From a bacterium (GTDB lineage: Bacteria; Patescibacteriota; Minisyncoccia; Phycocordibacterales; UBA1006): a stretch of 64,000 nt of DNA. The stretch spans positions 311,362 through 375,361 of the forward strand of contig JAUIMI010000001.1 of assembly GCA_030433255.1 (NCBI GenBank), written 5' to 3'. The notes under the pieces were generated by a model that worked only from the letters and a program-made list of their open reading frames with translations, was not told where the DNA came from and searched no databases. Below are positions 1,385 through 19,881 of the stretch, piece by piece. Numbering within the stretch: position 1 is the stretch's first letter; each line of letters begins with the position of its first letter. Made by a program: the position numbers and the translations under genes.

Positions 1385-1425
1385 TTTATTTATTGTATAG
1401 TTTTTTTATGATATATACTCAGAAC

Positions 1426-1737
1426 ATGGCGGGGAATAGAGGTTCTATAAAATGGATTATTCTTATTATTCTTGGAATTATTATTGCATCTTATTTTTTT
1501 GATTTTAGTGTACAAGATGCAGTAGAAGATGAACAGACTCAAGAAAATTTCTCATATATTAAATCCCATTTTCTCAATTTCTATAATCTTTATTTACAAA
1601 ATTTTACAGAGCCAATAATTAATTTTTTTAATGAATATATTTGGTCAGTGTTCATTGAAAATATGGAGAATGTTCAAAACGGAGAAACAACCGTGTTTGA
1701 TGAAGCTGCAGCAAACGTAACTATTAATTATAATTAA
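1426..1737 (+). CDS. Hypothetical membrane-anchored protein
   Basis: ORF with N-terminal TM helix; start moved to ATG 1426, 6 nt after TATACT. Confidence 0.65.
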   Translation: MAGNRGSIKWIILIILGIIIASYFFDFSVQDAVEDEQTQENFSYIKSHFLNFYNLYLQNFTEPIINFFNEYIWSVFIENMENVQNGETTVFDEAAANVTINYN

Positions 1738-1799
1738 GGAACCTTATATGTTAGGTTTTTTAATTTACTTTTTAATTAAAGAACCTTAAGATACTAGTT

Positions 1800-2396
1800 A
1801 TGAACATACATTCGGCACAATTTATAAAAGGAGTAGTAGGTGAAGATGGAATTATGTACGACGGAACACCGCACGTTGCTTTTATCGGTAGATCTAATGT
1901 CGGAAAATCCAGTACACTTAATGCAATATTGGAACGAAAGAAATTAGTTAAAACTGGAAGAACTCCAGGGAAAACTCGAGAGATTAACTTCTTTAAGTTA
2001 ATTACAGATAAGCAACAGGTATCGTATTTTGTTGATTTACCAGGATATGGATATGCAAAGCTATCAAAAAAACAGCGTGAAGAGCTTGCAGATTTAATTA
2101 GATGGTATATTACTCATCCTGAGGCCGATACGGCTCTTATTTGCTTAATTATTGATTCAAAGGTAGGTTTATCGGCCATAGATAAGGAATTCATTCATTT
2201 AATGGATATCGCAGGTAAAGACTATATTATAGCCGCAAACAAAATCGATAAAATAAATCAAAAATCTCAAAATAAACTTAAAAAAGAATTATTAGCTGAA
2301 ATTAAACCAGGTACAAAGATTTTTTATTACTCGGCACATAAAGGCAAAAATATTAATCTACTGCGTGAATATTTATTTAGTGGTAGTAGAGAATAA
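1800..2396 (+). CDS. engB: Ribosome biogenesis GTPase YsxC/EngB
   Basis: GRSNVGKS, TPGKT, VDLPGYGYAK and NKID motifs. Confidence 0.95.
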   Translation: MNIHSAQFIKGVVGEDGIMYDGTPHVAFIGRSNVGKSSTLNAILERKKLVKTGRTPGKTREINFFKLITDKQQVSYFVDLPGYGYAKLSKKQREELADLIRWYITHPEADTALICLIIDSKVGLSAIDKEFIHLMDIAGKDYIIAANKIDKINQKSQNKLKKELLAEIKPGTKIFYYSAHKGKNINLLREYLFSGSRE

Positions 2397-2400
2397 CCAG

Positions 2401-2433
2401 AAATACCTTGAATTCTTTGAAACAAGGTATTTT
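2401..2433 (+). terminator. Intrinsic terminator after engB
   Basis: aaataccttg...caaggtattt inverted repeat followed by a T-tract. Confidence 0.65.
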
Positions 2434-2463
2434 TTATTGATATACCTGTTATTATATAATATA

Positions 2464-2491
2464 ACGTCGTAAAATATATGTTGTGCGACGT
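2464..2491. other. dif-like Xer recombination site (left island boundary)
   Basis: ACGTCGTAAAA-TATATG-TTGTGCGACGT: 11-6-11 imperfect palindrome at the point where gene orientation converges. Confidence 0.7.
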
Positions 2492-2675
2492 TAATACAAG
2501 ATGTTTTTATGCCCTTTTAAGGGCATTTGACGTACATGCTTATTGAAACGGTGGTAACCTAAACATAAAGCATTATACTTTATAAAGATATTTCCGCTTT
2601 TGAGATATATTCATAGTTAAAAGTACATTTTGAATTATATCGCAATCCAACAAAAAAACAACCCTAAGGTCACTT

Positions 2676-3113
2676 TTACGAAGCCTGAAGTAGAACATCC
2701 CTCAATTTTAAGGCTTCCAATAATGAAGAGTCCAAGGTTAATGTTGGTTTGTTTTGGTTCAAATTGGATACTTCAGACTGTTGCCCTCCTTTTCTAGACA
2801 TATACTTTCCTGCCAATTCCTGATGACGGTTCGCACATAAATGTGTATAAGTAAATGAAGATTCAGGTTTTACATGTCTCAGAATCACCGAGACGTCTCT
2901 CATATTACCTCCCTGTTCTAAAATGCTATTCGCCTTGCCATGCCTAAAGCTGTGCGGTGTATAATTCTTGTCGATATTGGCATCTTCACACAGTAATTTC
3001 ATCCAACGTTGTACACTTCGCTGCGTGAATGGTTTCTTCGTTTTTGGATTAATCAAAAGTTCATCATGGTCAGTATCGAACCCTAGCCGTATCCCTAAAT
3101 AAATATTGAGCAA
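2676..3113 (-). pseudogene. Truncated XerC/D-like tyrosine recombinase (C-terminal catalytic part only)
   Basis: HSFRH, ILRH and YTH catalytic motifs; N-terminal domain and first catalytic Arg region missing. Confidence 0.8.
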
Positions 3114-3347
3114 GAGAAGAGTAAATACAGCGATAGCTTCGAATTTGAAATAATTAAAGCCTATAACGAATTATAGGCTAAACAATCAGTAGTGTTGGGA
3201 TATAGAATTCAACACCTTGTTTTTTGAATTAAGGTACTCGTACCCGTTTGGAGTTAGCTGATTAAGCTTTATTGTCTAACGTATTAAATATACTTGGTAA
3301 GCTTCTTCATTAGATCGTTTCATAACAGAACATTTAAAAAAGGAAAG

Positions 3348-3545
3348 TTATTTTACAAAAAGAAAATGAATAAAATAATTTGTCAAAAATTTCACTTCTT
3401 GTTTGGTCGGTCTTATAATACCAACATTGAATCCTATTTGGTTCAAGCGTGCTTGTAGAATTTTTACCTCAGTTGCCACATCTTTGGTATAGAAATGGTA
3501 ACGACCATCTCTGGCACCTGCTTTGACGTTTTGAGGCACTAACAT
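3348..3545 (-). pseudogene. Remnant of a peptidoglycan-binding domain, paralogous to the C-terminus of 3680-6742
   Basis: KAGARDGRYH...TEVKILQARLNQIGF aligns by eye with KVGDRNGSFS...TEVKILQAHMNRLGF. Confidence 0.6.
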
Positions 3546-3679
3546 TGATCAGCGTAAGTATTACGTATTCGGACACTACCTTGAATTCTGCGAATACTAG
3601 TTTAAGTAATATAGGCTCTGTTTCAAAATGTTAACTTTCAATTTATATTAAAAAACACCATTTGGTGTTTTTTAAGTAA

Positions 3680-6600
3680 CTAATTCAATGATGTAACTCC
3701 ATCTAATGCCACTCCAGAAAGAGCATTTAAATGCCCTGCGGTTTCAGGTCCAATAATTCCATCAAGGATTAAGTTATTAGCTTGTTGGTATGAACGAATA
3801 CCTGCGTAGGTAAGCCCTCCGTAAATACCATCAAATGGTCCAATGGAATGGCCAAGTGAAGCAATACATTCTTGTGCTTGACGTATGTCATTTCCTGTCA
3901 TTCCTCGTTTGATTAATCGTCTGTAATTGATGAAACATTTGGCATCTTCTACAACAGGAGTTGATTCTACTTCTATTACTTCTTTCCCACAACTATTGTT
4001 AATCAATGATCTTGTAATTGGTCCAACATATCCGTCCTGAGTTGTACCTAGATATGCTTGCATACGTTTAATAGCTCCGTCAGTAATTGGTCCCAAGATC
4101 CCATCTACTTTCCCTGATGCAAACCCTAATCTATTCATATGTGCTTGAAGAATTTTAACTTCCGTTATGGTTTCATTTTCCCATGATGAGAAGCTTCCGT
4201 TGCGGTCTCCTACTTTCATGTTTTGATTTAGTATTTGAGATGATGGACATTGTTCCCCTTTTCCAAGCTCTTCAGAAACAGGAGTTCCAAAAATTTCTGC
4301 TAACTTTTCTTTTGATACACGCCTTGAACTTCCTTTTGAAGTTGAAGTCGTAGCATCATCATCCGTTAGCGTTACGATATGTGCTTGGTCAGCAACCGCA
4401 TCATACTCATCAGCACTTGCAGCAGCATTGATGCTAGCGGTGATACTTGCGGTGTCGGTTTGCACAAGGTCATCGTCAACACCTGTGACGGTAACCGTTT
4501 GAGGTGTATCCCAGTTTGCTGGTGTAAAGGTCAGTGAGCTTGGTGATACCGTTGCTTCGTTGGTGTCACTTGAACTCAGGTCGATGACAACATCTGAGGT
4601 TGGTTCAGCATCAAGCACAATGGTGTAGCTTGCTGTTCCTGCGTTTTCTGAAGCTGTTGATGTGTTTGATGATTGAGTGAAATCAGCCATATCATCATCA
4701 GTGATGATAATTGAAGCGGTTGCATCTGCTACCCCATCATAGGTATCATCAGAGGCAGCATCATTTACCGAAATCGTAAGTGTAGCTGAGTCATCACGGT
4801 CAAGATCATCGTTAACTGCTGTTACGGTGATGGTTTGGTTGACGTTCCAGTTACCTGTAGTAAAAGTCAGTGAACTTGGCGAGACGGTGGCTTCCCCAGT
4901 GTCACTTGAACTCAGGTCGATGACAACATCAGTAAGTGGCTGTGAACCCAACCGAACATTGAAACTCCCAGTTCCTGCATTTTCAAGAATGGTTAATCCA
5001 GTTGTGGTAATTCCACTTGGGTCGATGATAATAGAAGCGGCATCATCATCCGTTAGCGTTACGATATGTGCTTGGTCAGCAACCGCATCATACTCATCAG
5101 CACTTGCAGCAGCATTGATGCTAGCGGTGATACTTGCGGTGTCGGTTTGCACAAGGTCATCGTCAACACCTGTGACGGTAACCGTTTGAGGTGTATCCCA
5201 GTTTGCTGGTGTAAAGGTCAGTGAGCTTGGTGATACCGTTGCTTCGTTGGTGTCACTTGAACTCAGGTCGATGACAACATCTGAGGTTGGTTCAGCATCA
5301 AGCACAATGGTGTAGCTTGCTGTTCCTGCGTTTTCTGAAGCTGTTGATGTGTTTGATGATTGAGTGAAAGAAGTAACCACATTTACAATACGTGTTACTT
5401 CGATAGCATCATTTCCAGCCGCATCAGCTACATTATATGTGATAGTGTAACTACCAAGAGTGGATGTATCTACTGGATTTACAGTTACAATATTTACTGT
5501 GATATCTCCATCAAGATTATCTGTTGCAGCCGCTCCAGCATCTGAATATGGAGTATTTACAGGGACTGTTACAGGGTCACTCCCTGTAAGTGTTATAACA
5601 GGGGGTGTTGTATCTTGTAACCATAGTCTATTTTGAAAATCACCATTATCCCCATTGACTACGTAAACATCAATTTCCCCATCATTGTTTACGTCCCCAG
5701 TTGTAACCCCAAATGATTCCCCAGTATCTCCTGTAATGTTGTTTTGTGTAAAGTTTCCAGATCCATCATTTTCCCAAATAATATTCTGAAAACCAAAATA
5801 CATTGCAATAAGGATATCCAAATCACCATCACCATCAAAATCAACAATTTCTGAATCTTGAGCAGTACCTCCATAGTCATTAGCGATATTTTGAGAGGCA
5901 AATGTCCCATCATTATTATTTATCCAAAACCGATTTAGATTAACAGGTTGGTCATCATAGTATGAGGTTAGGTATAAATCAATATCATTATCACCATCTA
6001 TGTCACCGACAACTACTGAACGACCTGGGCAACCATTATTTTGATCCGTACATATATCACCAGTTATGTTACCACTTACAAAAGTTCCATCCCCATTTCC
6101 GAGCCATAATTTGTTCTGGTTATTATACGCTGCTCGTGAAGCGTAAATGTCTAGGTTTCCATCGTTATTAAAATCAGCCATTGCTACATCATCAGCAATA
6201 CCATCTCCTGAAATACTTCCATCAATGAAATTCCCAGTCCCATCATTTATCCAAAGAACATTGGTTCCGCCACTAAATGCTCCTACATAAATATCTAAAT
6301 CGCCATCATTATCAACATCGCCAATAACAACCGAACTAGACCGAGAAGTTGTTGAGTCAGCTGGAATATCGGCATTTGTAAATGTACCATCTCCATTTCC
6401 AAGCCATAGTTTATTTTTACTAAAACTATTGGTGACATAGATATCCAAATTCCCATCACCGTTAAGGTCTGCCATAGCTGCATCGGTAGTGTTTCCTTGG
6501 TCATCACCTAGAATATCAGAATTGGTAAAAGTTCCATCCCTATTTCCGATCCATAATTTATTTTGCTCTAATCGAGCACCTACATATATGTCTAAGTTTC

Positions 6601-6742
6601 CATCGTTGTTAACGTCACCCATTATGGCTGAACGTGAATTTCCTAAATCATTAGGAATATCTTGTGAAACGAATTCGGCATAAGCGCCTTGAGCACTAAA
6701 AGCAAGCGCAAGTAATAAAATAATCTTTGTATAATACTTCAT
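3680..6742 (-). CDS. Surface protein: FG-GAP/VCBS repeats, DUF5011 Ig-like domain, three Calx-beta-like repeats, two peptidoglycan-binding domains
   Basis: Signal peptide; about 7 GDxxxDGxLDIYV repeats; DTTPPVITLTG...YNVADAAGN; repeated TFTPANWDTPQTVTV; DGILGPIT and DGIYGGLT motifs. Confidence 0.85.
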   Translation of the reverse strand: MKYYTKIILLLALAFSAQGAYAEFVSQDIPNDLGNSRSAIMGDVNNDGNLDIYVGARLEQNKLWIGNRDGTFTNSDILGDDQGNTTDAAMADLNGDGNLDIYVTNSFSKNKLWLGNGDGTFTNADIPADSTTSRSSSVVIGDVDNDGDLDIYVGAFSGGTNVLWINDGTGNFIDGSISGDGIADDVAMADFNNDGNLDIYASRAAYNNQNKLWLGNGDGTFVSGNITGDICTDQNNGCPGRSVVVGDIDGDNDIDLYLTSYYDDQPVNLNRFWINNNDGTFASQNIANDYGGTAQDSEIVDFDGDGDLDILIAMYFGFQNIIWENDGSGNFTQNNITGDTGESFGVTTGDVNNDGEIDVYVVNGDNGDFQNRLWLQDTTPPVITLTGSDPVTVPVNTPYSDAGAAATDNLDGDITVNIVTVNPVDTSTLGSYTITYNVADAAGNDAIEVTRIVNVVTSFTQSSNTSTASENAGTASYTIVLDAEPTSDVVIDLSSSDTNEATVSPSSLTFTPANWDTPQTVTVTGVDDDLVQTDTASITASINAAASADEYDAVADQAHIVTLTDDDAASIIIDPSGITTTGLTILENAGTGSFNVRLGSQPLTDVVIDLSSSDTGEATVSPSSLTFTTGNWNVNQTITVTAVNDDLDRDDSATLTISVNDAASDDTYDGVADATASIIITDDDMADFTQSSNTSTASENAGTASYTIVLDAEPTSDVVIDLSSSDTNEATVSPSSLTFTPANWDTPQTVTVTGVDDDLVQTDTASITASINAAASADEYDAVADQAHIVTLTDDDATTSTSKGSSRRVSKEKLAEIFGTPVSEELGKGEQCPSSQILNQNMKVGDRNGSFSSWENETITEVKILQAHMNRLGFASGKVDGILGPITDGAIKRMQAYLGTTQDGYVGPITRSLINNSCGKEVIEVESTPVVEDAKCFINYRRLIKRGMTGNDIRQAQECIASLGHSIGPFDGIYGGLTYAGIRSYQQANNLILDGIIGPETAGHLNALSGVALDGVTSLN
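4353..4682. repeat. 330-bp intragenic direct repeat, copy 1
   Basis: Appears identical by eye to 5040-5369 (offset 687 nt, 229 codons). Confidence 0.9.
5040..5369. repeat. 330-bp intragenic direct repeat, copy 2
   Basis: Appears identical by eye to 4353-4682. Confidence 0.9.
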
Positions 6743-6857
6743 ATCAATTTAAATATTAACCTAAGTCATTATTATTTACAATATCCTTGAACGAAAATTT
6801 GACTTGCAAAAATTGCTTATTGAAGTATAGTTGTATTAAATTTTAAACAAGTAAATT

Positions 6858-7352
6858 ATGAAACAATTATTTCTTCTAGTATTGGTATTTTTCTCTATTA
6901 CAGTGCAAGCTCAAGTTGGGCTAGGTACCAACACCCCAGACCCTAATTCTATATTGGATTTAACAAGTAACAATAAGGGATTGCTTATCCCTCGAATGCT
7001 AACTAGTGATCGTTTAGCTATTACATCACCACCAAACGGGTTAATCGTATTTGATGTTGATACCAATGGCATATGCTATTTTTCCTCTACTTTGGATTGG
7101 GTTTGCATTGATGCAGAGTCTACTAATGGATGGGTGCAATCTGTTGATGGCACAACACCAGCAAGTGATGCAACTCAATCCATTGAGCGTTCTGGTGACC
7201 TAGAAATTTCAACCACAAGTTTTCAGATTAGTATCTCTGAGTCAGGTGGGATTACACTCAAAAACACCTCAAGTAATTCAAGTATAGAAATACAAAGCGA
7301 CGGTAAGATAAAGATGACCGGAGCAAGTGGAAGTTTTGTATACATTAATTAG
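6858..7352 (+). CDS. Secreted protein of Bacteroidota type (QVGxGTxxP / KGLLIPRM family)
   Basis: Signal peptide ending AQ, then QVGLGTNTP...LDLTSNNKGLLIPRM...GLIVFD. Confidence 0.75.
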   Translation: MKQLFLLVLVFFSITVQAQVGLGTNTPDPNSILDLTSNNKGLLIPRMLTSDRLAITSPPNGLIVFDVDTNGICYFSSTLDWVCIDAESTNGWVQSVDGTTPASDATQSIERSGDLEISTTSFQISISESGGITLKNTSSNSSIEIQSDGKIKMTGASGSFVYIN

Positions 7353-7492
7353 TTGAAAATTGAATTTAGAAAAGCCCTTACACTCGTATAGGCTTTTTTT
7401 TAAATTACTTAAAGGACATTTAATACAAGGATTACAATATCTAAAGGACATTTAAAAACAGGCTATTTTTAAGTAGCCTGTTTGTTATTTAG

Positions 7493-8863
7493 TTAACGTA
7501 TAATTAATTTTTTAGATATTATCTTGTTGCTTGTAAGTATACTCACATGATACATTCCAGATGATAGATTAGGTAATTGTAAGCTTGTATTATCCGCCAA
7601 TAAACTACTATCATAATAAGCCATGGTTTTACCCAATGGATTATAGATAGTCACCTCTTGTATTGTAATAGCTTCGGGTAAGATAAAATGTATCTCTGTT
7701 GTTGCAGGATTTGGATATAAACGAATACTGTCAGTGGAGTCCTCAATATCTGAAACTCCCAAAGTAGCTTCATTTATGACATACATCTCAGTGATTAATT
7801 CATTTTCATATTGACCAACACCAATGTTGCCAGAAGTTAAGAGAACATTTGAAACTATCCCTTGATAAGGCATCTTTACAATAACGGATGAACCATATGC
7901 TCTATCAGCCGGAATAAAATTAGGATCTAGCGTCAAATTTGAGCCAGTATCGATGTAAATTCCTGCACTGGGATTCGGTTGTGATTGAAAACCAGCTACA
8001 TAATAGTCAAAACTTCCATCACTATTAAAATCATGTTCAAGAATATTAGCCTGTATATGATTAGGAATTACACTCGAACTTAACTCCGTAACACCATCTG
8101 AATCCACAAAATAAATATCAGATGTGTTGTTGTTAGTTTTAAGAATATACCTTCCAAATTCATTAAACACCAAAATGGTATCTGAACCCAATAAGCCTCT
8201 TGTACCTCTCAAGACATTATACGTGCCATTGTTGTTGCTAACCATAACATAACAATTATTATTCACATCATTGTTTGGTGTTGAGTTAAGAGAACTGGTA
8301 TCATCTACTATTTTTGTAAAGAATCCATTGGAATTTTCATAAATAATAGAACGTAAACGAAAACTTGCATCACGACCACTTGTTCGTAAATCAAGATCGC
8401 CATCATTATCAACATCGAAAAAATCAGCTATAACATCGTAAAGTCCAATGAGGTTTTGGGATACATTGTACCCTCCATTCCCGTCATCCATACGAATTTC
8501 TGCAAAAGGATTTGAATTGGGCAAATTAAGATTTGGCGTACCGATAATAAGAATATCTGGACCATACAGCCCATCAAGATCAGCCTGAAGTATTTTTCCA
8601 TACCCCACATCTGGCAATGTTCCCGTCTGAGCAAACATGTCATTTGTGTCATCAAAGTCGTAAATGCGAGTCCCAAGAATAGAATTATCCTCTATTCCAT
8701 ATCCGATTAATCGATTATGTAAACCATCTCCGTTAGTGTCGATAGGTAGAAATTCTCCTTTGACAGGAACGAGATTGTGCTGAATAGTTCCATAATTTAG
8801 TTGAGCACACACATTGAAAATAGGTGCAATTGCCATCATCAAAAACAAAATAATTTTTTTCAT
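7493..8863 (-). CDS. FG-GAP/VCBS-repeat protein with T9SS type A C-terminal sorting domain
   Basis: Signal peptide; DVDNDGDLDL and DFNSDG repeats; C-terminal LYPNP...IYNPLGK...LSSGMY...KKLIIR. Confidence 0.85.
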   Translation of the reverse strand: MKKIILFLMMAIAPIFNVCAQLNYGTIQHNLVPVKGEFLPIDTNGDGLHNRLIGYGIEDNSILGTRIYDFDDTNDMFAQTGTLPDVGYGKILQADLDGLYGPDILIIGTPNLNLPNSNPFAEIRMDDGNGGYNVSQNLIGLYDVIADFFDVDNDGDLDLRTSGRDASFRLRSIIYENSNGFFTKIVDDTSSLNSTPNNDVNNNCYVMVSNNNGTYNVLRGTRGLLGSDTILVFNEFGRYILKTNNNTSDIYFVDSDGVTELSSSVIPNHIQANILEHDFNSDGSFDYYVAGFQSQPNPSAGIYIDTGSNLTLDPNFIPADRAYGSSVIVKMPYQGIVSNVLLTSGNIGVGQYENELITEMYVINEATLGVSDIEDSTDSIRLYPNPATTEIHFILPEAITIQEVTIYNPLGKTMAYYDSSLLADNTSLQLPNLSSGMYHVSILTSNKIISKKLIIR

Positions 8864-9037
8864 CTTTTTAAATTTTAAGGTTTATTTGATTTGATATTAC
8901 CATGAACTCTTTCTTTTTACTATAAACTGAAAAAGCCTAACACTATATGATTATATATTTACAGGATAACTGTATATTCCCTTGCTTTGTTCAAACACTT
9001 GTTTTAGTTTAGCTTTCATCCATAAAACAAAGAATAC

Positions 9038-10978: not shown

Positions 10979-13900
10979 TAATATTAGTTATCGAAGCCTG
11001 CTTATTGGTGTCATTGTCTGTTTTGTAATCCACGTTTACACGGTAGCCACGTACACGCTTTACTTTGGTTTTTGGTTGAATTAAGGCATCAAGATACAGC
11101 AGTAATTCTTCAGATTTGAAGAAGTGGATTTTTAAGTGTTGTTTTTTAGAAATATTCTTTAAGGCTTGTTCCTTGATATTCTTAAGATGCTTTTCGTCCT
11201 CTGAAATCATATATACCAAAGAGTAGTTATCATCCAAGCACTTTTGAATATTTTGTACTTCATAATCTACTCTATTAGTTACTGAAATTTCAATGGCAAT
11301 ACGAATATCATCTTTTAACAGCGATACATCAACTTTGCCACCATTTAATGTTGAATCTTCAAGTGTTGCCTTAAACCCTCGCTGGAGAGCCATAGAACGA
11401 ATGTAATTTTGAATTGAACGATGCTGACGGACAATCTCCTGTTCTTCGGCTTGTTGTAAGTATTTTTCTTTACGAGCTTCTAAATCATCAGTCTTTTCTA
11501 AATTTTCAGTTTTTGGAGATGGTTTTGTTTCAGTAATGGGCTTTTCAACTTCACTTTTCTTATCTTCAACAATTACGGGTTCAACAGATTTTTCAATTTT
11601 GGGTTCTGTTGTTTTAGTTTTGAGTTTAGTCTTTTGGGGTGTTTGCTTAGGAAGCAAGGAAGCTAACAACTCATCAAGTTCTGCTTTAGATTTGCTGTAG
11701 CTTTTTCTTGTATGAGCAACAATACTATCTCTATTTACTTCGGCATTAGTTTCAGCTATAGACAATGGAAAGGTTGAAATATTAAAATCATCACTTGAAG
11801 AACCTACGCGCATAATGGCTTGTCCGATACCGAGACTCTGTAAATCATCTTGCTCAAAATATGAAAAACCAGACTCCAATCGTTTCGCATCGCTATCGCC
11901 TAGACGAAAACAAATCCGTGTTTTTGGATTTGATAAAACAGAGTTCAACAATTTTGCATCTTCAATTTGAGCCAATTCTTGATGAGCAATGGTAATACCT
12001 AAACCATATTTTCTAGCACCACTTAATATACGTTCAATACTTGGTGTGATGAAATTTTGGAACTCATCTAGGTATAACATAAAAGGTTTACGGCTATCCT
12101 TACCTTTAGATTGCCTTGCCAATGCCGATTGATTAAATTTTGCCAAGAACAATGAGCCTAATAAATAGGAATTCTGTTCTCCAATAAGGCCTTGCGATAA
12201 TTTCAGTAAAACAATTTTGTTGGTATTAAGGCAATTTGCTACATCAACACCTTTGTTTTGAGCTAACATATAGCGCACCAATTTTGGACGTAAAAATGTA
12301 TCTATACGAGTAAGTAGTGGTGCAATACCTTTTCGTACCAAAGGATATTCATTATTCCAATAGTAATGTAACGAAGGGTCGTTGACCGTTTTTAAGTATT
12401 GAACTCTATAAGGTTCTTCAAGTAGAAAACGCTTTAATTCAATAAGCGTTCCACCTTGAGTGCTCTCTAACATGGTATTTACAGCGTTTTGCAATACCGC
12501 AGTCATATTATCTCCCCAAGCAGTGGCATGACGTTTAAATGCCGAAACTAAATCTGATGAGAGTACAATTTTTTCAGCATCGGTATGCGCTTCTAATAGA
12601 TTGAATCCAATAGGGAAGTCAGCATCGGAAGGGTCTATTAAAACTACATCATTAATCCTGTTTTCTGGAATACGCTCTAAAATATCATCAATGATGTCGC
12701 CATGTGGATCGAACATAGCACAACCCATTCCATTTTCAATATCGGCAAGCATCATATTTGCCAGTAGAGTACTTTTACCAACGCCTGTGGCTCCTATTAC
12801 GTGTGTATGGGACAAACGTGTTTCATAGCTTAATTGAACAGGAATATCTTCTTGATTATGGGTATTGACTCCAATTAGGATGCCTTGATTGTCCTTTTGG
12901 TGTATACGTTTGGTTTTACCAACTTGCCATTGTAGTTTTTTAGAAACCACCGTTTTATTGGGATAGTGCAAAAAGGTATTCAGTTCCTTGGAATTCAATA
13001 CAAAGCCCAATCGGTTACTGAGGCGATGATGTAGATTGTATTTATGGAAATCATAATCATACCCTTCATTGGATAAAGGGATGAGTTTGTTATGCTGAGA
13101 GGTTGAAACTGCCGAAATACTTCGTGCTAACTCTTGTGCCAGATACTGACTCCTGTAATTGTCCTTGCCTTGAGTAGCTATACGCATCACCACTGAAAAT
13201 AGTGGATGTGCTATTTTTTCTTTGGCACACTGTGGCATTTCAGGAGCATCCGAAAAAAAAGAACCGCCAGCACCATCATTTACCGAATACATTGTATCCT
13301 TTGCTAAAGGAGAACTAATACCTTTAAACAGAATTTGAAAAACAGCAACATCATCATCCTGCAAAGCTTCCATAGTTGCGATGACTGAAGTTAATGGGTC
13401 TATGTTAAAAGAATCAGACGTAACTATGCTTCGCATATATTCACTATTAAGCCCAAAGTCTGCAATAGCGATATCATTTTTGTTTGAAAATCCAAAATCA
13501 TCAACTTCAATAGTTTTAATTATAACCATTGGAAAGTATGCCGATAATTGCGATTTCAATCTGCCTCTATCCTGTTTACTACATACCATTTGAATTTGGA
13601 TAGTATCTGAATTACCAATAATTTCAAAGGACAGTAAATGTTCTGTAAAGGATAGTAGATTGAGAAGTTCGATATTCCTGCTTGGATTGATTTCAGTCCC
13701 ATACGGAAAGGAAATTGAGAGACCAACAAGTTGAGGCTTTTCTGAAACTTCAAGAAAACGAGGTTTAACCTCTATTAAATCTTCTTCTGGTTCTTCTTCT
13801 TTAGGAGGAGCAAGTAATTTGGTTACTTGTTTGAATAATGAAGGTGCTCTACCATCATCTTGTATTGAAGGTCGGTTTTGGCTTACATGCTGAAAGGGAA

Positions 13901-14009
13901 CATAGGGAACCTCAATATCAATAGGAGTATCGAAATTGTAATACCCACGAAATCGATACTCCCAATTATAGAAATTAAGGGTTGCTTGTTCACTTCTTGT
14001 TAAACCCAT
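10950..14009 (-). CDS. VirD4/TraD-HerA-like ATPase with C-terminal PD-(D/E)xK-like domain
   Basis: HTHVIGATGVGKS Walker A, DPHGD, LYLDEFQNF Walker B, ARKYGL...AHQ; C-terminal KVDV...IAIEIS. Confidence 0.8.
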   Translation of the reverse strand: MGLTRSEQATLNFYNWEYRFRGYYNFDTPIDIEVPYVPFQHVSQNRPSIQDDGRAPSLFKQVTKLLAPPKEEEPEEDLIEVKPRFLEVSEKPQLVGLSISFPYGTEINPSRNIELLNLLSFTEHLLSFEIIGNSDTIQIQMVCSKQDRGRLKSQLSAYFPMVIIKTIEVDDFGFSNKNDIAIADFGLNSEYMRSIVTSDSFNIDPLTSVIATMEALQDDDVAVFQILFKGISSPLAKDTMYSVNDGAGGSFFSDAPEMPQCAKEKIAHPLFSVVMRIATQGKDNYRSQYLAQELARSISAVSTSQHNKLIPLSNEGYDYDFHKYNLHHRLSNRLGFVLNSKELNTFLHYPNKTVVSKKLQWQVGKTKRIHQKDNQGILIGVNTHNQEDIPVQLSYETRLSHTHVIGATGVGKSTLLANMMLADIENGMGCAMFDPHGDIIDDILERIPENRINDVVLIDPSDADFPIGFNLLEAHTDAEKIVLSSDLVSAFKRHATAWGDNMTAVLQNAVNTMLESTQGGTLIELKRFLLEEPYRVQYLKTVNDPSLHYYWNNEYPLVRKGIAPLLTRIDTFLRPKLVRYMLAQNKGVDVANCLNTNKIVLLKLSQGLIGEQNSYLLGSLFLAKFNQSALARQSKGKDSRKPFMLYLDEFQNFITPSIERILSGARKYGLGITIAHQELAQIEDAKLLNSVLSNPKTRICFRLGDSDAKRLESGFSYFEQDDLQSLGIGQAIMRVGSSSDDFNISTFPLSIAETNAEVNRDSIVAHTRKSYSKSKAELDELLASLLPKQTPQKTKLKTKTTEPKIEKSVEPVIVEDKKSEVEKPITETKPSPKTENLEKTDDLEARKEKYLQQAEEQEIVRQHRSIQNYIRSMALQRGFKATLEDSTLNGGKVDVSLLKDDIRIAIEISVTNRVDYEVQNIQKCLDDNYSLVYMISEDEKHLKNIKEQALKNISKKQHLKIHFFKSEELLLYLDALIQPKTKVKRVRGYRVNVDYKTDNDTNKQASITNIIMKALRGKK

Positions 14010-14014
14010 GTCAT

Positions 14015-14599
14015 CTATCTGATAAATACATCATTTAACATAGGCTTACGCTCTGCCTCACTGATAGAGCGGATTCCTTTATCGTTGGTAATGTCATCAA
14101 TGACTTTTAACACCGAAGATTGAGCGTAGCTCATAAACATACTGGCAGTATCTATCCTGTAATAGGTTACTGGATACAATTTTCTTGCAAGCCAACCACC
14201 TATAAATGGAATTTTAGCAACCAATATCTTGCCAATGGAATCTTTATACAATAACCACCAAGACACGAAAAAGCCATGACCAAACTTGGCTCCACAAATA
14301 TCATATTGGTAATCTTTCCATATAGCTCGTAAATAGATGCGAGAATGAGACATCGCTCCTCCTTCTTTAATGAATTTTTCTTTGATATTGATTTTTGTAA
14401 TGCCGTGAGATTCCAGTTCGGTTTTTAATAAGGCATAAAACTCTTTAGGTGAGTATTCAAAGTTATCAATAAGGGTACTCCACCGTGAGTGATAGTTTTT
14501 TCTGGTTTTACTGAAAATAAATCTTAAAACTAGAAAAGCAACAATTCCAGCTAGGACATACATCCCATATTTTGTTAGATAAAAAGTGAATTCATTCAT
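14015..14599 (-). CDS. Hypothetical membrane protein upstream of the ATPase
   Basis: N-terminal TM plus a second hydrophobic segment; 5 nt from the ATPase gene. Confidence 0.7.
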   Translation of the reverse strand: MNEFTFYLTKYGMYVLAGIVAFLVLRFIFSKTRKNYHSRWSTLIDNFEYSPKEFYALLKTELESHGITKINIKEKFIKEGGAMSHSRIYLRAIWKDYQYDICGAKFGHGFFVSWWLLYKDSIGKILVAKIPFIGGWLARKLYPVTYYRIDTASMFMSYAQSSVLKVIDDITNDKGIRSISEAERKPMLNDVFIR

Positions 14600-14625
14600 A
14601 GGGTTTCAAGTTTTAGTTGTTAGAC

Positions 14626-15534
14626 TTATATTAATTGTGTCTTTATTGATAAGGTTTTTTCCTCTTCATTATAGAAGCAGTCTACAGTAACTTTAGGTAA
14701 TTGGGACAAAGAGCTAACATGAGTTCCTCCACAAGGGATAGTAACAAATCTATCATTTATTTTTACTTTAAAATTTCGTTTAGCCCCTAATTGAATATTA
14801 TCTCCGAACATACTTACTTTAGAAGATTTATTGATATCTATAAGTTTGTTTAAACTACTCGACAACTCAATAGAAAACTTTTTAAAATCTAAGCTTTTGA
14901 ATTTAACTAAGTCAAACCCTTTCTTTGATAAACTTTTACCAATACGATATACATCAGTAGCATAATAAGTGTAGATTTTTGATTTCTGTATTGCTAAGGC
15001 ATCAAAATTTGGATTATTAAGATCATCTTTAAAATCCACCTCTTTTTTCCAAAATGAAGCTAGTTCTTCATTAAGAATTATTGACATCAAATGAACGGTA
15101 GTGTGTGTTTTAGAGAGATTTTCTCTAAATTTTTCGTCTACATATAACTCGCAATCTAAATCAATTAATGAGTTTTCATTTAATGAGTTTAAATCGTCAA
15201 TAATAAAATGCCCTATCATGGCAATATATATACCTTCTTGAAGCCCTTTATAAAAAGCACTTTTACTTTTGGGAAATACATTCTTTCTAGTATTTATGTC
15301 TATAATTATAATACGAGAGTCTTCAACCTTATATGTTTTTCCTTGAATGACTATTTTTCCTTTATCTCCTGGTTGATCTCCACCTAGATAATCTTCAGGG
15401 TGAAATGGACTCATGTCTGTACAAACATATAGACCCTCAGGAAAAGAAAAGACACCTTTTATTTTAGCTTTAGAATAGGTTGAATTTTCATAATATAATG
15501 CTTGGCTAGTTGTTGTTCTATTTGAGATTTTCAT
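14626..15534 (-). CDS. AlaX-like metal-dependent hydrolase (AlaRS editing-domain family)
   Basis: SPFHP...GDQPGDKG, HTTVH (HxxxH) and PCGGTH (CxxxH) zinc motifs. Confidence 0.8.
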   Translation of the reverse strand: MKISNRTTTSQALYYENSTYSKAKIKGVFSFPEGLYVCTDMSPFHPEDYLGGDQPGDKGKIVIQGKTYKVEDSRIIIIDINTRKNVFPKSKSAFYKGLQEGIYIAMIGHFIIDDLNSLNENSLIDLDCELYVDEKFRENLSKTHTTVHLMSIILNEELASFWKKEVDFKDDLNNPNFDALAIQKSKIYTYYATDVYRIGKSLSKKGFDLVKFKSLDFKKFSIELSSSLNKLIDINKSSKVSMFGDNIQLGAKRNFKVKINDRFVTIPCGGTHVSSLSQLPKVTVDCFYNEEEKTLSIKTQLI

Positions 15535-16553
15535 AAGTTAATTATATAAGGATTAGTACTTTTTACAAACTGCATCTTCACTTTTGACCTAAGAGTCACT
15601 ATTCTTTGAAGCCAACGATCGTGTCCATCAAATTTTGCGGGGAACAATGATCTACCATGGACTGCTTTATCATTATCTATAATTAATAAATCGCCTGGTT
15701 TAAGAGCTATCTTTATAGCGCTTTCATGTATAAGTAATTTTAATTCTTTAAATGCTGTTTCTGCTTTTTTTGTTAAGAACTTGGTAGTATATAATGGATC
15801 ATACCTCAAGGTAAGTGTCTTTTTAAATTCTAATATTGACACCTTAACTTCTTTTTGAACACCATGGGCTTCGTCTGAAGAAATAATAAAATTGGGCATT
15901 AGTAATTGTTCAATTGTTTGTGGTTTTAACTTATAAAAGTCTATTTTAGAAATTAACGTATAAGCTTCTGGTGTTCCTCTTAAACATAATAATAGTATAT
16001 GATTGCACCTAAGGTTGTGAAATGCATCTTCTGTATGCCAATCTAAATAGACTCTCCCCGTTCCTAATTGTTTATTTTGGTCTTTTATTTTGGGAAAAAG
16101 ATTTTGTATTACAAGTCCTTTTCTTTGCGAAAAATAGCCATAAGGATATCCTATTAAATTAGCTATAGCAATAAGAATGATTTCACTGTAAGATGTCATT
16201 TTTAAATCTAAATTTCCAGTTGGCCCAAGATGTTGGTCTAGCAATAAATTTTCAATTAAAAAAGCACCTATAGTATTAGATTTATTTGCAAACTCAACAA
16301 TAGAATCTTCTAATTCATTAGGAAGCACATCTGAAACATCATCACTCGCCCTAGAAATATTGAAGTAATTTTTTTGATTAAACTTTTTTTCCGCTTTGAT
16401 GGAAACTTTATTTTTTATGAACTTATTTTCATCAGATGACAGTCTATAAAAAGATTCAAATTTTGTTAGCTGAATTTTTTCATGAATTTTTCTTAAGTCT
16501 TTCACTATATCTCTTTTTTTAGTAAAATTAGATTTATAACTATTTGTAACCAA
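15531..16553 (-). CDS. Clavaminate synthase-like (TauD/TfdA; AsnO/VioC-like) Fe(II)/2-oxoglutarate dioxygenase
   Basis: WHTEDAFH, LLLCLR, GDLLIIDN..AVHGR and DRWLQR motifs; start codon uncertain. Confidence 0.85.
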   Translation of the reverse strand: MVTNSYKSNFTKKRDIVKDLRKIHEKIQLTKFESFYRLSSDENKFIKNKVSIKAEKKFNQKNYFNISRASDDVSDVLPNELEDSIVEFANKSNTIGAFLIENLLLDQHLGPTGNLDLKMTSYSEIILIAIANLIGYPYGYFSQRKGLVIQNLFPKIKDQNKQLGTGRVYLDWHTEDAFHNLRCNHILLLCLRGTPEAYTLISKIDFYKLKPQTIEQLLMPNFIISSDEAHGVQKEVKVSILEFKKTLTLRYDPLYTTKFLTKKAETAFKELKLLIHESAIKIALKPGDLLIIDNDKAVHGRSLFPAKFDGHDRWLQRIVTLRSKVKMQFVKSTNPYIINL

Positions 16554-16630
16554 TACGGATTTTCCCTTAATTTTTAATGCTGATTATCTGAAAGACAATA
16601 ATTTCAAGTAGATTTACTTCATTATTCGAA

Positions 16631-17320
16631 ATGATGAACATCAGATTATTAATATTCGTAATCTTTCTTGCTCTTGGAATTGGATGCCATGCGGGCTCTT
16701 ATGCCTTCAATAATGAAAAACTTTTAGAACTATTATCGCAGGCTGAAAAACTGGAACAGAACAAGGAGTATTCAACCGCATTGAATGTATATAATGAGGC
16801 TCTGAAAATTGCATCCAAAGAAGAGCGTATTGAAGACGCCAGTTACATTTACAATAAAATAGGATTAGTCTATTACAGACAAAAGCAATACGAAACAGCA
16901 AAATCCAATTTTAAGACCAGCATCCTAAAATCCAATATTTCTAATAGTGCTGCAGATTCTTATTTCAATCTCTCGCTGATTTACAGAAAACAAAACTCAA
17001 AGGATAGCCTTCTATGGTCATTGAATAGGTCTTTGGAAATTTATGGTGGTTTGGAAGATAGCAACAGTAAATTTTCAACCTATTCCAAAGCTGGAATTCT
17101 CTATAAACAGCTGGGTATGTATGACAAAGCCATTGAATATTTGCTTTTGGCTTATGACGGATTAGATAATAAAGAAAATGAGTCCCAAAAAACTTCGGTT
17201 TGCTACACCATTGGTGAGACGCAACGCCTTTTGGGAAATTTAGACATTGCTAAAACTTATCTAAAAGAAAGCCTTCAGATTAGAAATAGACTTAATGATT
17301 CTCTTAAAACGTCTTCATAG
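16631..17320 (+). pseudogene. TPR-repeat protein, probably the truncated N-terminus of a TPR sensor kinase
   Basis: Signal peptide plus several TPR repeats; stops abruptly, overlapping the convergent truncated hlyD. Confidence 0.65.
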
Positions 17321-17622
17321 TTAGCAGTGTTTTCGGCTATGGCTAATGCTTGACCACTATGAACTATATCATTATCCTTTACGAGAAGATTGCTAATTTC
17401 ACCACTCATTCTTGCATATTCCTTTTGAGGTGGAATTGTAGTAGTTATTATTACCTGTGACTGAATAATATCAGGATACTTAATATACCATGTTGCTAAA
17501 AACAATAAAAATATAACTACAAAAATTACCGTTATCCCCCATTTTAAAAAAACATTTGGTTGCTTTTCTAAAATTTCTCTAATTTGCTCACTGTGATTAT
17601 CGATTTCGTCAATTTTCATCAT
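17275..17622 (-). pseudogene. Truncated HlyD-family secretion adaptor
   Basis: SEQIREIL...KWG-TM-YIKYPD...VKDND.V..GQ.LA..ENTANYEDV, then sequence breaks off. Confidence 0.8.
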
Positions 17623-17876
17623 TAACTTCCTAATTCTAATTGATCTTTAACTAACTTATAATAGACTCCTTTATTATTTACTAACTTTTGATGATCACCT
17701 TCCTCAATTATTTCTCCTTTTTCTAAACAGCTCCCTAAATAATCTTTAATCTTAGCCCATGTACCATCACACCCATGACAATCAGACCAGTCACCTCCTT
17801 GAACTTTTTCAAGTACATCACTAGTGTTTACGTTTTCTGCTTTTGCTTTAAAAGCTTCAAGACTTAATCTCTTCAT
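17622..17876 (-). pseudogene. Double-glycine leader peptide precursor fused in frame to the last ~34 aa of an ABC exporter
   Basis: MKRLSLEAFK...LEKVQGG leader; tail LEKGEIIEEGDHQKLVNNKGVYYKLVKDQLELGS is an ABC NBD C-terminus. Confidence 0.75.
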
Positions 17877-17900
17877 AATAAAAAGTTTTATATAGTTTAC

Positions 17901-17933
17901 TTGCCTACTCTTTTAGCTTTTCGGCTCCCGCTA
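17901..17933 (-). promoter_or_regulatory. Candidate structured leader upstream of the peptide precursor
   Basis: Minus strand reads TAGCGGGAGCCGAAAAGCTAAAAGAGTAGGCAA, a GC-rich stretch with a GCC/GGC stem in AT-rich DNA. Confidence 0.35.
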
Positions 17934-18044
17934 TTATTATTTTCTAAATAAACGAAAAATATTGGTCATTATTGACCAAATAATTAAAAATTTATATTGT
18001 TAACTGTTTTTTGAGTTTCTCATAGAGTTTTTTCAGGTAATAAC

Positions 18045-18350
18045 ATGTTATGTTTTATCTTGCAATTGCTATTAATCATGTTTCCTATGAACTCATTACC
18101 CTTTGAGATTCTCTTTGAAGTTCTCGGCAATCGTATTCGTGATCTTCGACAATCAAAAAAGCTTTCACAAATTGAAGTAGCAGCAAGATGTGGACTGGAC
18201 GTTTCTAACTATAATAAAATTGAATTTAACAAAAGGCCACCATCACTACGTACGCTATTTAAAATTGCCATTGCTCTAGATGAACCTATCTCTAATTTCT
18301 TTAATGATGAAGTGTTTCTCTCATTTATCGAAGAACATGTGAAAGCTTAA
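18045..18350 (+). CDS. XRE-family HTH transcriptional regulator
   Basis: LGNRIRDLRQSKKLSQIEVA...IE...PSLRTLFKIA; true start may be a later ATG. Confidence 0.85.
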   Translation: MLCFILQLLLIMFPMNSLPFEILFEVLGNRIRDLRQSKKLSQIEVAARCGLDVSNYNKIEFNKRPPSLRTLFKIAIALDEPISNFFNDEVFLSFIEEHVKA

Positions 18351-18572
18351 TAAAAATGTTGTTTTTAATAAATCAGTCTATCAAGTCTAAAGTTGTAATC
18401 TCATTAAATAGCTTTTAAATATGCTTGCTTTTTGGTTCTAGCAGTATTGTGTAGCAATGGCATTAAGTAAGTATTAGGCTAATGTCCACAGATATACTTT
18501 AAATTCTATTTTTTTAATTACGAAACCAAAAAAAAGCGTTAGCTTTTTAAAACAGCCAAACCAAAGAGATAG

Positions 18573-18884
18573 CTATAACCAGCTATCTCTTTGTAATTGC
18601 TTTCGTTCTTGTTCCTGTTTTATTTGTTCTATTCGGATATGGTCTGGAATGCGTTCATTTGCGTTGTACTTTGGTAAAGAAATTTCTTTTGTAGAACGCA
18701 TTTTTTGCGTTTCGAATTGTGAATGAGATATCCAGTCCCGTCGCTTAACCTTTCCAAACTCATCTCGCCATCCCAAAAGATTCCTCACAATCTTAAGATA
18801 CACACGCACCGCAGATCCACTCATACTTCCAATATGCTTATCAAAAAAAGCATTAGGCACTGGAGTCGTATTATTCAGTCGCAT
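18573..18884 (-). pseudogene. Phage/plasmid replication initiator (lambda-O-like N-terminus), probably internally deleted
   Basis: NTTPVPN...RVYLKIVRNLLGW...DWISHSQF, with the remainder of the winged helix absent. Confidence 0.55.
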
Positions 18885-19083
18885 GAGCTTCAAAATCAAT
18901 TACTGGTAAATTATCATTATGATTTGGAAAGATCATAAAATTAGTATCTGGTTGATGATACAACTGTAAAAACCAACCGCCGTTGTTGGTTACTTTTACA
19001 ACACCTACTTTATGATAAATATGTTTGTCGTTATCAACCTTATTAACAGTTTTACGAGTAACAACGTTATAAAATTTAGTCAT
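18871..19083 (-). CDS. Small hypothetical mobile-element protein
   Basis: MTKFYNVVTRK...KVGVVK...WFLQLY; overlaps the rep start; start moved to ATG 19083. Confidence 0.55.
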   Translation of the reverse strand: MTKFYNVVTRKTVNKVDNDKHIYHKVGVVKVTNNGGWFLQLYHQPDTNFMIFPNHNDNLPVIDFEAHATE

Positions 19084-19186
19084 ACTAAAATTCAATTTTA
19101 TGTACGTTTTAACCTTAGGGAAAACCCAATACAAATCAAAATCGAAAATATTTTGTTTCAATAGAAAGTCGCAAAACCCTTGACTT

Positions 19187-19214
19187 TTGTCGGACAAGTA
19201 GTGTTGTGCGACGT
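19187..19214. other. dif-like Xer recombination site (right island boundary)
   Basis: TTGTCGGACAA-GTAGTG-TTGTGCGACGT; right arm identical to that of the left site. Confidence 0.65.
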
Positions 19215-19435
19215 TATATTAAAATGACATATTTTATAAAAACCACCCTATTTACATACTTTTCCTAAAATAAAAACCACCTAGTTTCTAAGGTGATGGT
19301 TTTTATCCCTCACAAGAAATACAAACATTCATTTCTTGTTCTTTTTGTTTACCTGCTACCTCTTCACTGGTAAATGGATCAATATAGGTATCTTTCATAA
19401 TTTTAATTATATTAAACGTGTATACAATAATTATA

Positions 19436-19879
19436 CTATTTTTTCTCTATTACTAAAAATAGCTGGCTCTTTGTGTTGTATGCTTCGAGGGTTAAGGTAT
19501 ACTTGCCTGCCTCTTTGAATGCGTACTTCTCTTTATATAAGGTGTTGGGTGTATTTAAGTGTAACTGCTCGTGTACAGCTCTTATAATTTCTTTTAAACC
19601 TAGCGCATGATATAGAGAACCTTTTTCATTTAATTTCTCTCTTATGGTTATGGTTTTACCATTAATCAGGGATAGTGTTGTTTCTATTTTTTCCTGTTCC
19701 TTTTCTGCCTTATTAAGAGCAGCTGTTTTTGCTTGTTTGATTTTATTTAATGCTGTATTGGTAGCAACCTTTGCCAAACCTTTCGGGATAAGAGAGTTTT
19801 GAGCGTATCCATCTGAAACTTCAACAACCTCTCCTTTTTTACCAATACCTTTTATATGCTGTGTTAAAATAATTTTCAT
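19436..19879 (-). CDS. rplI: 50S ribosomal protein L9
   Basis: MKIIL...GKKGEVVEVSDGYAQN.LIPKG.A. Confidence 0.95.
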   Translation of the reverse strand: MKIILTQHIKGIGKKGEVVEVSDGYAQNSLIPKGLAKVATNTALNKIKQAKTAALNKAEKEQEKIETTLSLINGKTITIREKLNEKGSLYHALGLKEIIRAVHEQLHLNTPNTLYKEKYAFKEAGKYTLTLEAYNTKSQLFLVIEKK

Positions 19880-19881
19880 AC

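Follow-up and report, generated by a model that had tools for sequence, protein, structure and literature searches.

A decayed 16.7-kb element with its closest relatives in Flavobacteriaceae chromosomes, at a probable dif site of a patescibacterial genome

Between the engB-like gene and rplI, in a 64,000-nucleotide stretch of a patescibacterial (CPR) contig (hereafter the window), lies an island of foreign appearance bracketed by two similar palindromes. Where did this DNA come from, what is the site that it occupies and which enzyme put it there? We consider the island to be a decayed 16.7-kb element, closest to elements of Flavobacteriaceae chromosomes, that was inserted at a single-copy terminus palindrome (likely dif), probably by its own tyrosine integrase, and give this reading a probability of roughly 0.6.

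Ends of the island

The preliminary description pointed to two 28-mers, and these are indeed present at 2464–2491 and 19187–19214, both with 11-6-11 geometry and with identical right arms. The 812-kb genome has exactly two copies of the 15-bp direct repeat that they share, and allowing ≤2 mismatches adds none; the idea that the site is one of many unrelated copies across the genome can thus be discarded. The features of the window are as follows.

1800–2396, + strand: engB-like GTPase gene (Pfam MMR_HSR1), host left flank
2464–2491, + strand: attL, comprising host left arm, host spacer TATATG and right arm, an intact host-type dif-like site
2479–2493, + strand: left copy of the 15-bp direct repeat, the crossover region (arm, preceded by the last 2 spacer bases and followed by 2 bases)
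2676–3113, − strand: tyrosine integrase 3′ remnant (PF00589), 99.3% identical to P0001, residues 189–333 of the intact form
3680–6742, − strand: FG-GAP/Ig-like surface protein with PG-binding tail (Pfam)
6858–8863: Bacteroidota-type cargo, a 164-aa ORF (+) and a 456-aa protein with T9SS sorting tail (−) (PF18962, TIGR04183)
9038–10978, + strand: large serine recombinase fused to an HTH ORF, 646 aa (~491 aa in most relatives)
10950–14599, − strand: 1019-aa TrwB/TraG-like ATPase and 194-aa ORF, a module travelling with the serine recombinase, 73% to locus L200
14626–18350: partly truncated cargo (AlaX-like, Fe/2-oxoglutarate dioxygenase, TPR fragment, HlyD-like fragment, short peptide and ABC-transporter end fusion, HTH)
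18573–18884, − strand: repO-like remnant (tblastn), 103 aa against ~170 aa in relatives, with an internal deletion
18885–19165: conserved non-coding stretch between repO and the site
19166–19176, + strand: extra arm copy, able to pair with the attR right arm as a single-strand hairpin
19187–19214, + strand: attR, comprising element left arm (4/11 changes), element spacer GTAGTG (4/6 changes) and host right arm
19202–19216, + strand: right copy of the direct repeat, paired with 2479–2493
19436–19879, − strand: rplI (Pfam), host right flank

The third arm copy, at 19166–19176, had been missed in the preliminary description.

The edges of the island are exact. In run X5, which comes from another study and has flanks ~96–99% identical to those of the window, one 4,851-bp contig (depth 10, 15 ambiguous letters) joins position 2478 to 19202 and skips 16,723 bp: a near-identical strain has an empty site and is 16,723 bp shorter. 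The empty site retains the attL spacer TATATG and agrees with the right flank of attR. The 24-bp core of attL is identical to the lone site in six relatives (G005, G008, G011, G014, G015, G016), and attR, read on the minus strand, matches the unbroken sites of four loci (L178, L179, L193, L210). The read check proposed earlier delivered the empty site but no circle; neither was seen in the two island-bearing runs, whose contigs drop rare variants. Runs X6–X17 contain small shares and were left out, except X6.

Could the island be an assembly chimera of a CPR contig and Flavobacteriaceae DNA? The genome is a metagenome bin, 18579–18710 matches abundant DNA in the same run (330–660x) and no piece among those listed spans the whole stretch. 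We nonetheless regard a chimera as scarcely credible. In run X1 both junctions are spanned at equal depth (7.5–8.5), one contig crossing the left site by ~250 bp with no difference and another extending 111 bp across the right site; the repeat is short (15 bp), and hybrid sites are the expected products of recombining an unbroken site.

The terminus site of the host lineage

The suggestion that the island lies at the replication terminus holds for the whole contig. The maximum of the cumulative GC skew of contig C3 is at window position 5610; with the island taken out, it falls 39 bp from the left site. The + strand carries 194 of the 246 long ORFs left of the site and 8 of the 46 to its right, and GGGNAGGG, which we take to be the polar terminus motif, is found 19:1 on the leading strand.

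The left site also looks like a dif in other respects. It is 28 bp long, with two dyad-symmetric 11-bp arms around a 6-bp centre; it is single copy, intergenic and conserved amid changing flanks; and its position at the terminus is accompanied by converging polar motifs and by FtsK, matched in a 770-aa frame of the host genome. Among 60 relatives, 44 have a single copy of the motif (control, 0), lying between genes with its arms conserved and its flanking sequence variable. Across the order, 282 of 401 genomes have a single site at ≤2 mismatches; five genomes have two palindromic hits, of which only one (G224) has both close together (3.5 kb). The predicted lone site between engB and rplI was recovered: engB is directly upstream in 15 of the 16 same-genus genomes having the motif, and rplI is the next gene in five (G005, G008, G011, G014, G016). 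The host encodes one full-length Xer, with catalytic motifs present, that passes the XerA-like cut-off of NF040815 (225.6 against 220); its gene, at 138 kb of contig C4, is not adjacent to the site on C3. Judged by these sequence features, the left site likely behaves as the dif of the lineage and is the putative target of its one Xer, as first proposed. In the literature on dif, Xer or chromosome dimer resolution in Patescibacteria (titles and abstracts of openly accessible papers), we found no description of the site or the element, and the accessible parts of four papers hold nothing against this reading (PMC3164646, PMC8371274, PMC3025954, PMC11490935).

Four independent lines (conservation, skew, the empty site, and mimics in phages and elements) fix this terminus site of a large CPR order, which is also an entry point for foreign DNA. 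That it is an integration hotspot is borne out by the island and by other elements that occupy the same site. Dif-inserted elements with related integrases are found in three other CPR families: in G068 (40 kb, with a terminase), G295 (40 kb) and G123 (19 kb) the related int is directed at a dif that is intact, the site at the other end being degenerate, and in every element with both ends seen the int 3′ end lies 150–500 bp from the site. G010 shows the opposite orientation, its repO end being fused to the host left arm next to engB, and parts of the element are present in at least three genomes of genus g1 (G000, G005, G010). In G006, where the putative host flank is 45 bp only, one site (C9) is on a terminase-bearing contig, and another (C12) has flanking sequence too short for a decision. 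Searches for a far site in G167, G338 and G488 found none. Arm-like matches within int of G167, G488 and L068 were dropped because they look like coding of conserved F-A-T residues.

An element family shared with Bacteroidota

New here is the identity of the island ends: a tyrosine-integrase remnant and a repO-like remnant. The integrase remnant, with its 3′ end towards the left site, lacks the N-terminal half including the first catalytic Arg (motif check), whilst the intact form has all catalytic motifs. Its named relatives are from Flavobacteriaceae. With 27% identity to the host Xer and a separate clade in a quick tree (all our integrase trees are quick trees without bootstrap), it belongs to a separate family and is not a copy of that Xer. 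At the other end, the repO remnant is 97% identical over 58 aa to L200 (a full-length copy, P0087, matches PF04492), and ~18710–19135 shows 87–89% nucleotide identity to L196–L200 and 83% to G010.

Loci of the close integrase clade are overwhelmingly from Bacteroidota (46 of 48). An integrase-side arm lies ~190 bp past the int stop in 44 of these 46, with repO next in 40, and in 40 of 46 int and repO flank an unbroken CPR-dif-like site. When the island ends are joined, they align over the crossover with eight of the 46 loci (host-flank controls, 0): together the two ends make up a single site, which Bacteroidota carry unbroken between int and repO. The site is not a native Bacteroidota motif, being found in 6 of 301 genomes, at background level and below the reversed control, and in five of five carriers the lone copy is in the element. 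Cultured Algibacter, Zhouia, Flavivirga, Winogradskyella, Dokdonia and Polaribacter carry an element whose target site is without counterpart in the chromosomes of their own phylum and agrees with CPR dif.

In its tetranucleotides, the cargo at 14626–18350 resembles Flavobacteriaceae (0.944) more than the host (0.899), and the 194-aa ORF is 92–97% identical to proteins of Mesoflavibacter, Yeosuana, Winogradskyella and Xanthomarina. The serine recombinase is 92% identical to a copy of 646 aa assigned to a Ca. Paceibacterota MAG and 92% to a further copy. The surface protein, which occupies the place expected for the int 5′ half and core genes, is likely of CPR origin, its best match among the loci compared being CPR L164 (51% over 101 aa; Bacteroidota loci, 28%). 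A promoter scan gave no signal above chance.

How might such an element have arrived? We propose that a circular form would leave the Bacteroidota chromosome via a tRNA integrase or serine recombinase, enter the CPR cell and recombine with dif at one matching spacer border (2 bases) by a strand exchange, the junction then being finished by replication. The int side would then retain an intact dif, and the repO side a hybrid site. Afterwards, the int 5′ half and part of repO would have been deleted and the CPR-type surface gene gained; given these deletions, this copy is likely unable to excise itself.

The unbroken target in Flavobacteriaceae relatives suggests likely repeated passage between the phyla, and the match of Bacteroidota-borne sites to CPR dif variants is likely kept by repeated passage through CPR chromosomes. 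The spacers point the same way. TATATG is the spacer in 10 of 18 genus-g1 loci and none of 26 others, and recurs in eight element sites; in 18 of 43 element sites the spacer as a whole is a CPR one, and with 34 variants to compare, a 1-base spacer match is nearly free. Integrases only 39–50% identical keep the exact CPR spacer GATATA, and one subclade has the genus-g1 spacer. The arm type (left-like or right-like) switches six times on the integrase tree, at least four of the switches being forced. Tentatively, at somewhat under even odds, we would go further and envisage a two-host family that uses one recombinase for Bacteroidota chromosomes and another for the Paceibacteria dif, and that passes from epibiont to host cell and back. 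Stays in CPR chromosomes may be rare, since no CPR genome besides that of the window was found in the close clade and core gene c5 was matched in none of 301 class-wide genomes, the rows listed not including the c5 carrier G005. To our knowledge, the hosts of most Paceibacteria are unknown. If the two-host reading is true, the spacer of an element site would serve as an address label, naming marine Flavobacteriaceae as hosts of genus g1 and allowing sequence-based pairing of uncultured CPR bacteria with their hosts. The element makes a link between Bacteroidota and Patescibacteria testable in culturable strains, and an integrase with its site for CPR dif might be turned into a genetic tool. 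Bacteroidota are frequent gene donors to Patescibacteria, according to the accessible part of one study (PMC12455944).

The int-site pair might instead be the element's own multimer-resolution module, inherited from an old CPR dif-targeting element, with the insertion a one-off cross-reaction and no regular traffic. Such a module would account for the unbroken site of nearly all Bacteroidota copies, in which other recombinases do the integrating, and for a close clade far commoner in Bacteroidota than in CPR. A resolution site would, however, drift with its enzyme, yet distantly related integrases keep GATATA and one subclade the genus-g1 spacer; the arms, moreover, are kept unequally, parts of the element recur in genus g1 and the serine-recombinase/ATPase module is also in the G295 dif island. 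We consider this explanation improbable.

The acting enzyme and comparison with known systems

The preliminary description likened the island to an IMEX. A dif mimic and integration at dif are indeed found, and that much of the comparison stands; an IMEX has no integrase of its own for this site, however, whereas here a tyrosine recombinase gene adjoins the site across the element family. The island is accordingly termed a dif-targeting element with its own integrase rather than a demonstrated IMEX.

Conservation of the arms does not name the enzyme, because any dif recombinase needs them. In a true IMEX, the host Xer would integrate a double-stranded site (VGJ- or TLC/GGI-like) or a folded single-stranded one (CTX-like), the element recombinase being a helper or resolvase. 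The integrase-side arm scores 17.7 bits against 17.6 for the CPR arms (the rep-side arm, 0.7) in element sites picked by a score weighted to the integrase-side arm, and it equals the host consensus. The site classes mirror those of Vibrio IMEX as far as described in the parts available: a one-sided spacer match, or an arm plus the whole spacer with the other arm degenerate (PMC4246890, PMC5357621). Extra arms stand at fixed offsets in 26 of 45 sites (0.02 expected) and in 18 of 22 with a degenerate rep-side arm. The full four-arm form is present in 12 of 45; the window has three arms, and its hairpin of the 19166–19176 arm with attR folds at −9.9 kcal/mol (z −3.45). The hairpin is not universal, that of L178 folding no better than shuffles (z −0.06). 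Five of seven near-complete viral records with the motif gave no tyrosine recombinase or resolvase match, so a host-Xer route may exist; viral contigs gave no match to repO, and a search with the integrase alignment gave seven distant viral loci, none with a scored site. Against the host Xer as integrating enzyme, every element for which the two ends were seen has an int gene, and the intact form of int has all catalytic motifs. A true IMEX therefore seems unlikely, if worth keeping in mind, and the element's own integrase is likely the enzyme that acted.

Compared with the Vibrio IMEX (CTX, VGJ, TLC) and the gonococcal genetic island, as covered in the parts of the papers available, the island likewise entered a 28-bp 11-6-11 terminus site via a dif mimic (PMC4246890, PMC9226527, PMC5357621), leaving an intact dif on one side and an altered one on the other, with homology limited to one spacer border or one degenerate arm. 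The differing spacers had been thought to limit re-excision, but VGJ phage excises despite one-sided spacer homology (PMC4246890). The present system differs in that the host has one Xer rather than XerC/XerD, and that the element encodes its own tyrosine recombinase beside the site and has relatives that carry an unbroken site in another phylum. LME-1 and XerL/dif of Legionella also combine a near-symmetric dif, one recombinase and an insertion that leaves an intact and a modified site (PMC9765430, accessible part). The arm sequence is unrelated, however, the att of LME-1 reproduces 22 bp exactly, against spacers with differences at 4/6 bases in the island, and a cross-phylum reservoir is not described for LME-1 in that part. 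XerS/difSL, XerH/difH and archaeal XerA/dif share with the host one Xer per genome (PMC5357621, in part); in contrast to the linked module of the XerS/difSL type, the host xer is not beside the site, and FtsK and the polar GGGNAGGG are present.

Finally, Bacteroidota chromosomes harbour mobilisable islands that integrate at tRNA genes. In the two relatives mapped (Algibacter and Kordia), the int-repO module lies inside 41- and 49-kb islands bounded by tRNA repeats and carrying another integrase. Bacteroidota relatives share with the tRNA islands relaxase PF03432 (the relaxase cluster lying within 10 kb in 11 of 46 loci), VirD4 PF02534, RadC and a D12 methylase; no relaxase was matched in the window copy (Pfam). 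What distinguishes the present family from these islands is a second recombinase, with a target site for the CPR chromosome.

The terminus site and its insertion

The preliminary description had placed the island between two dif-like sites of 28 bp, each of 11-6-11 geometry (arm, spacer, arm), with identical right arms and a shared 15-bp direct repeat, and all of this was borne out on re-examination:

2464-2491: left site (attL), an intact host-type dif-like site, engB to its left
19187-19214: right site (attR), rplI to its right

Many unrelated copies are not found: the shared 15-mer occurs twice in the 812-kb genome and no more at up to two mismatches. A degenerate pattern built from both sites is present as a single copy in 44/60 relatives, including 16/17 genomes of the same genus, with no match among the 60 for the reversed pattern, and across the order 282 of 401 genomes match the site motif at two mismatches or fewer. 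A search of relatives for one such site between engB and rplI had been suggested; of the 16 same-genus genomes bearing the motif, 15 have engB directly before it, with rplI the next gene in five and one or two ORFs intervening in three. The proposed terminus location is upheld by cumulative GC skew, which on C3 (the contig bearing the window) peaks at window position 5610, or 39 bp from the left site once the island is removed in silico. Long ORFs on C3 lie on the plus strand in 194/246 cases to the left of the left site versus 8/46 to its right, and the motif GGGNAGGG, which we take to be KOPS, favours the leading strand by 19:1. The left site thus behaves as the dif of this lineage. The host encodes FtsK and one full-length tyrosine recombinase (306 aa, not on C3) that clears the threshold set by NF040815, a XerA-like model, and a Xer-type match is found in 52/55 genomes of the family; we infer that the host Xer acts on the left site.

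In two relatives (G015, L158; G013, L317) a ribAB-type gene sits between the terminus site and rplI, another acquisition at the same spot. In G224:C5:75248-78783 (L153) two dif-like sites lie in direct repeat 3.5 kb apart with one small ORF between them.

Four sequencing runs were compared with window 1100-21000. The empty site that the preliminary description called for is present in one contig of run X5, from another study, which joins 2478 to 19202, skipping 16,723 bp, and retains the left spacer. In run X1, which may be the source of the window's assembly, each site is spanned by its own separate contig, at a depth of 7.5-8.5 that is level across island and backbone; neither an empty site nor a circle was seen among the contigs of X1 and X3, a look that rare forms could escape. 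The island is a genuine insertion. From the X5 join and its left spacer, the left site is made up of the host's arm and spacer followed by an arm of the element, and the right site of the element's arm and spacer followed by an arm of the host; the two spacers agree only in their last two bases.

Contents of the island

The left end of the island encodes the C-terminal 145 residues of a tyrosine integrase (Int), 99% identical to the intact 333-aa P0001 and lacking the first catalytic arginine, and the right end carries a shortened, inward-reading repO-like gene. Between them lie genes for a CPR-type surface protein, a T9SS-tail protein, a serine recombinase, a coupling-protein-like ATPase and a 194-aa ORF product with 92-97% identity to proteins named from Flavobacteriaceae, together with partly truncated cargo. 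Several further features were observed:

4353-4652 and 5040-5339: exact 300-bp repeat in the FG-GAP surface protein gene
9038-10978: serine recombinase fused in frame to an HTH ORF (646 aa; relatives mostly 491-501 aa); a second 646-aa form, 92% identical, is named from a Ca. Paceibacterota MAG
17275-17876: short peptide, presumably with a double-glycine-like leader, running into an ABC transporter end, then an HlyD-like gene, truncated; what is left of a peptide export cluster
18579-18710: matches X1 contigs at 330-660x, indicating high abundance there of a related element carrying repO
18885-19165: non-coding, upstream of repO, conserved in elements of both phyla; may contain an origin, a promoter or a small ORF

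Bacteroidota relatives with an unbroken site

Scanning species genomes with an Int alignment gave 48 loci, 46 of them in Bacteroidota, several being cultured strains. Downstream of the int stop codon, mostly by ~190 bp, 44/46 Bacteroidota loci have a CPR-type arm, and repO comes next in 40/46, giving the order int, unbroken site, repO. Judged by gene order and alignment, this arrangement is that of the window's island circularised: the joined island ends align across the crossover with 8/46 loci (67-74% identity), and host-flank controls span it in 0/46. RadC, a D12 methylase and an ATPase are common around the site, and a relaxase lies within 10 kb in 11/46 loci. The site is single-copy in five of five carrier genomes, and its motif has six matches in 301 Bacteroidota genomes, which is background level. 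In Algibacter and Kordia the module lies inside islands of 41 and 49 kb, bounded by tRNA repeats of 49 and 59 bp, along with a second integrase gene. For Zhouia and Polaribacter a bounding repeat of the tRNA type was sought and not found, and serine-recombinase module genes are nearby. The element therefore enters Bacteroidota by another route, the CPR-like site being kept unused. One Polaribacter element (L217:11073-11805) contains a pair of dif-like sites that are separated by 709 bp and enclose a small ORF, an arrangement resembling a mini-cassette insertion at the element's own unbroken site (attP).

Across 43 element sites the arm nearer int carries 17.7 bits, against 17.6 for CPR arms, and the arm nearer repO 0.7. 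Identity to some CPR dif extends one to three bases into the spacer in 25/43 sites and across the whole spacer in 18/43, and never enters from the repO side. It is the whole-spacer matches that carry weight, since sites had been chosen by a score weighted towards the int side and a match of one base costs almost nothing. The TATATG spacer, found in 10/18 loci of the host genus (g1) versus 0/26 other CPR loci examined, recurs in eight element sites. A fast Int tree has six switches of arm type, at least four forced by well-supported branches. On these comparisons, the element sites track CPR dif. Extra arm copies stand at fixed offsets in 26/45 sites (0.02 expected); that at 19166-19176 in the window forms a predicted hairpin (z -3.45), and the similar L178 site folds no better than shuffles.

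Integration in CPR genomes and known systems

Another CPR family has a 40-kb prophage at dif with a terminase, an intact Int and both ends visible (G068:C1:267420-307727, L301-L303). G295:C25:71076-114433 (L308, L309, L376) is a 40-kb dif island with Int and the same serine-recombinase module as the window; another right arm lies 3.6 kb beyond and may reflect tandem insertions; G123 has a 19-kb element at dif in the opposite orientation. In all three a related int is directed at an intact dif, and the site at the other end has degenerated, with three (G068), two (G295) and six (G123) spacer bases common at the crossover side. The most likely mechanism is that the element, as a circle, used its own Int to recombine with dif. 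Where the spacers match at their border, Int would swap a single pair of strands, and replication would complete the junction, as outlined for the Vibrio phage VGJ (PMC4246890). Loss of the 5' half of int is likely to have fixed the window copy in place, and the spacer mismatch may also hinder excision by host Xer.

The main rival has the host Xer carry out integration, alone or together with Int, and viruses offer candidates for Xer use. The site motif occurs in at least 120 viral stretches, and most of 80 viral contigs (L033-L112) contain the Paceibacteria dif motif once, close to consensus, with spacers that vary. A recombinase search covering 42 of 50 viral records drawn from these 80 loci found a tyrosine recombinase in two, both among the seven near-complete ones; the other five (41-50 kb) gave no tyrosine recombinase, serine recombinase or resolvase match and are candidate tailed phages using host Xer. 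For the window's element, integration through Int is still preferred. CPR-borne Ints interleave with Bacteroidota-borne ones in a quick tree, apart from host Xers and Bacteroidota XerC/XerD-like proteins. None of the other CPR genomes searched yielded a member of the close Int clade, and core gene c5 had no listed match in 301 genomes from across the class, which counts against frequent traffic. Within the genus, the repO end in G010 is fused to the left arm of the host site next to engB, and G005:C17:5705-14700 (L313) carries core genes elsewhere in the genome (51-74% identity to Flavobacteriaceae copies). The tyrosine recombinase at this G005 locus is a different one, and a type I restriction subunit there shares 95% identity with one encoded on C2, another contig of the window's genome.

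No paper on this terminus site or this element was found in the literature searched, and the interest of the finding lies mainly in the cross-phylum site. The suggested kinship with IMEX elements, which integrate at dif via host Xer, holds for the way the element works but not for its class, since IMEX have no integrase and this element has its own. The nearest single-Xer case is the Legionella element LME-1 (PMC9765430).
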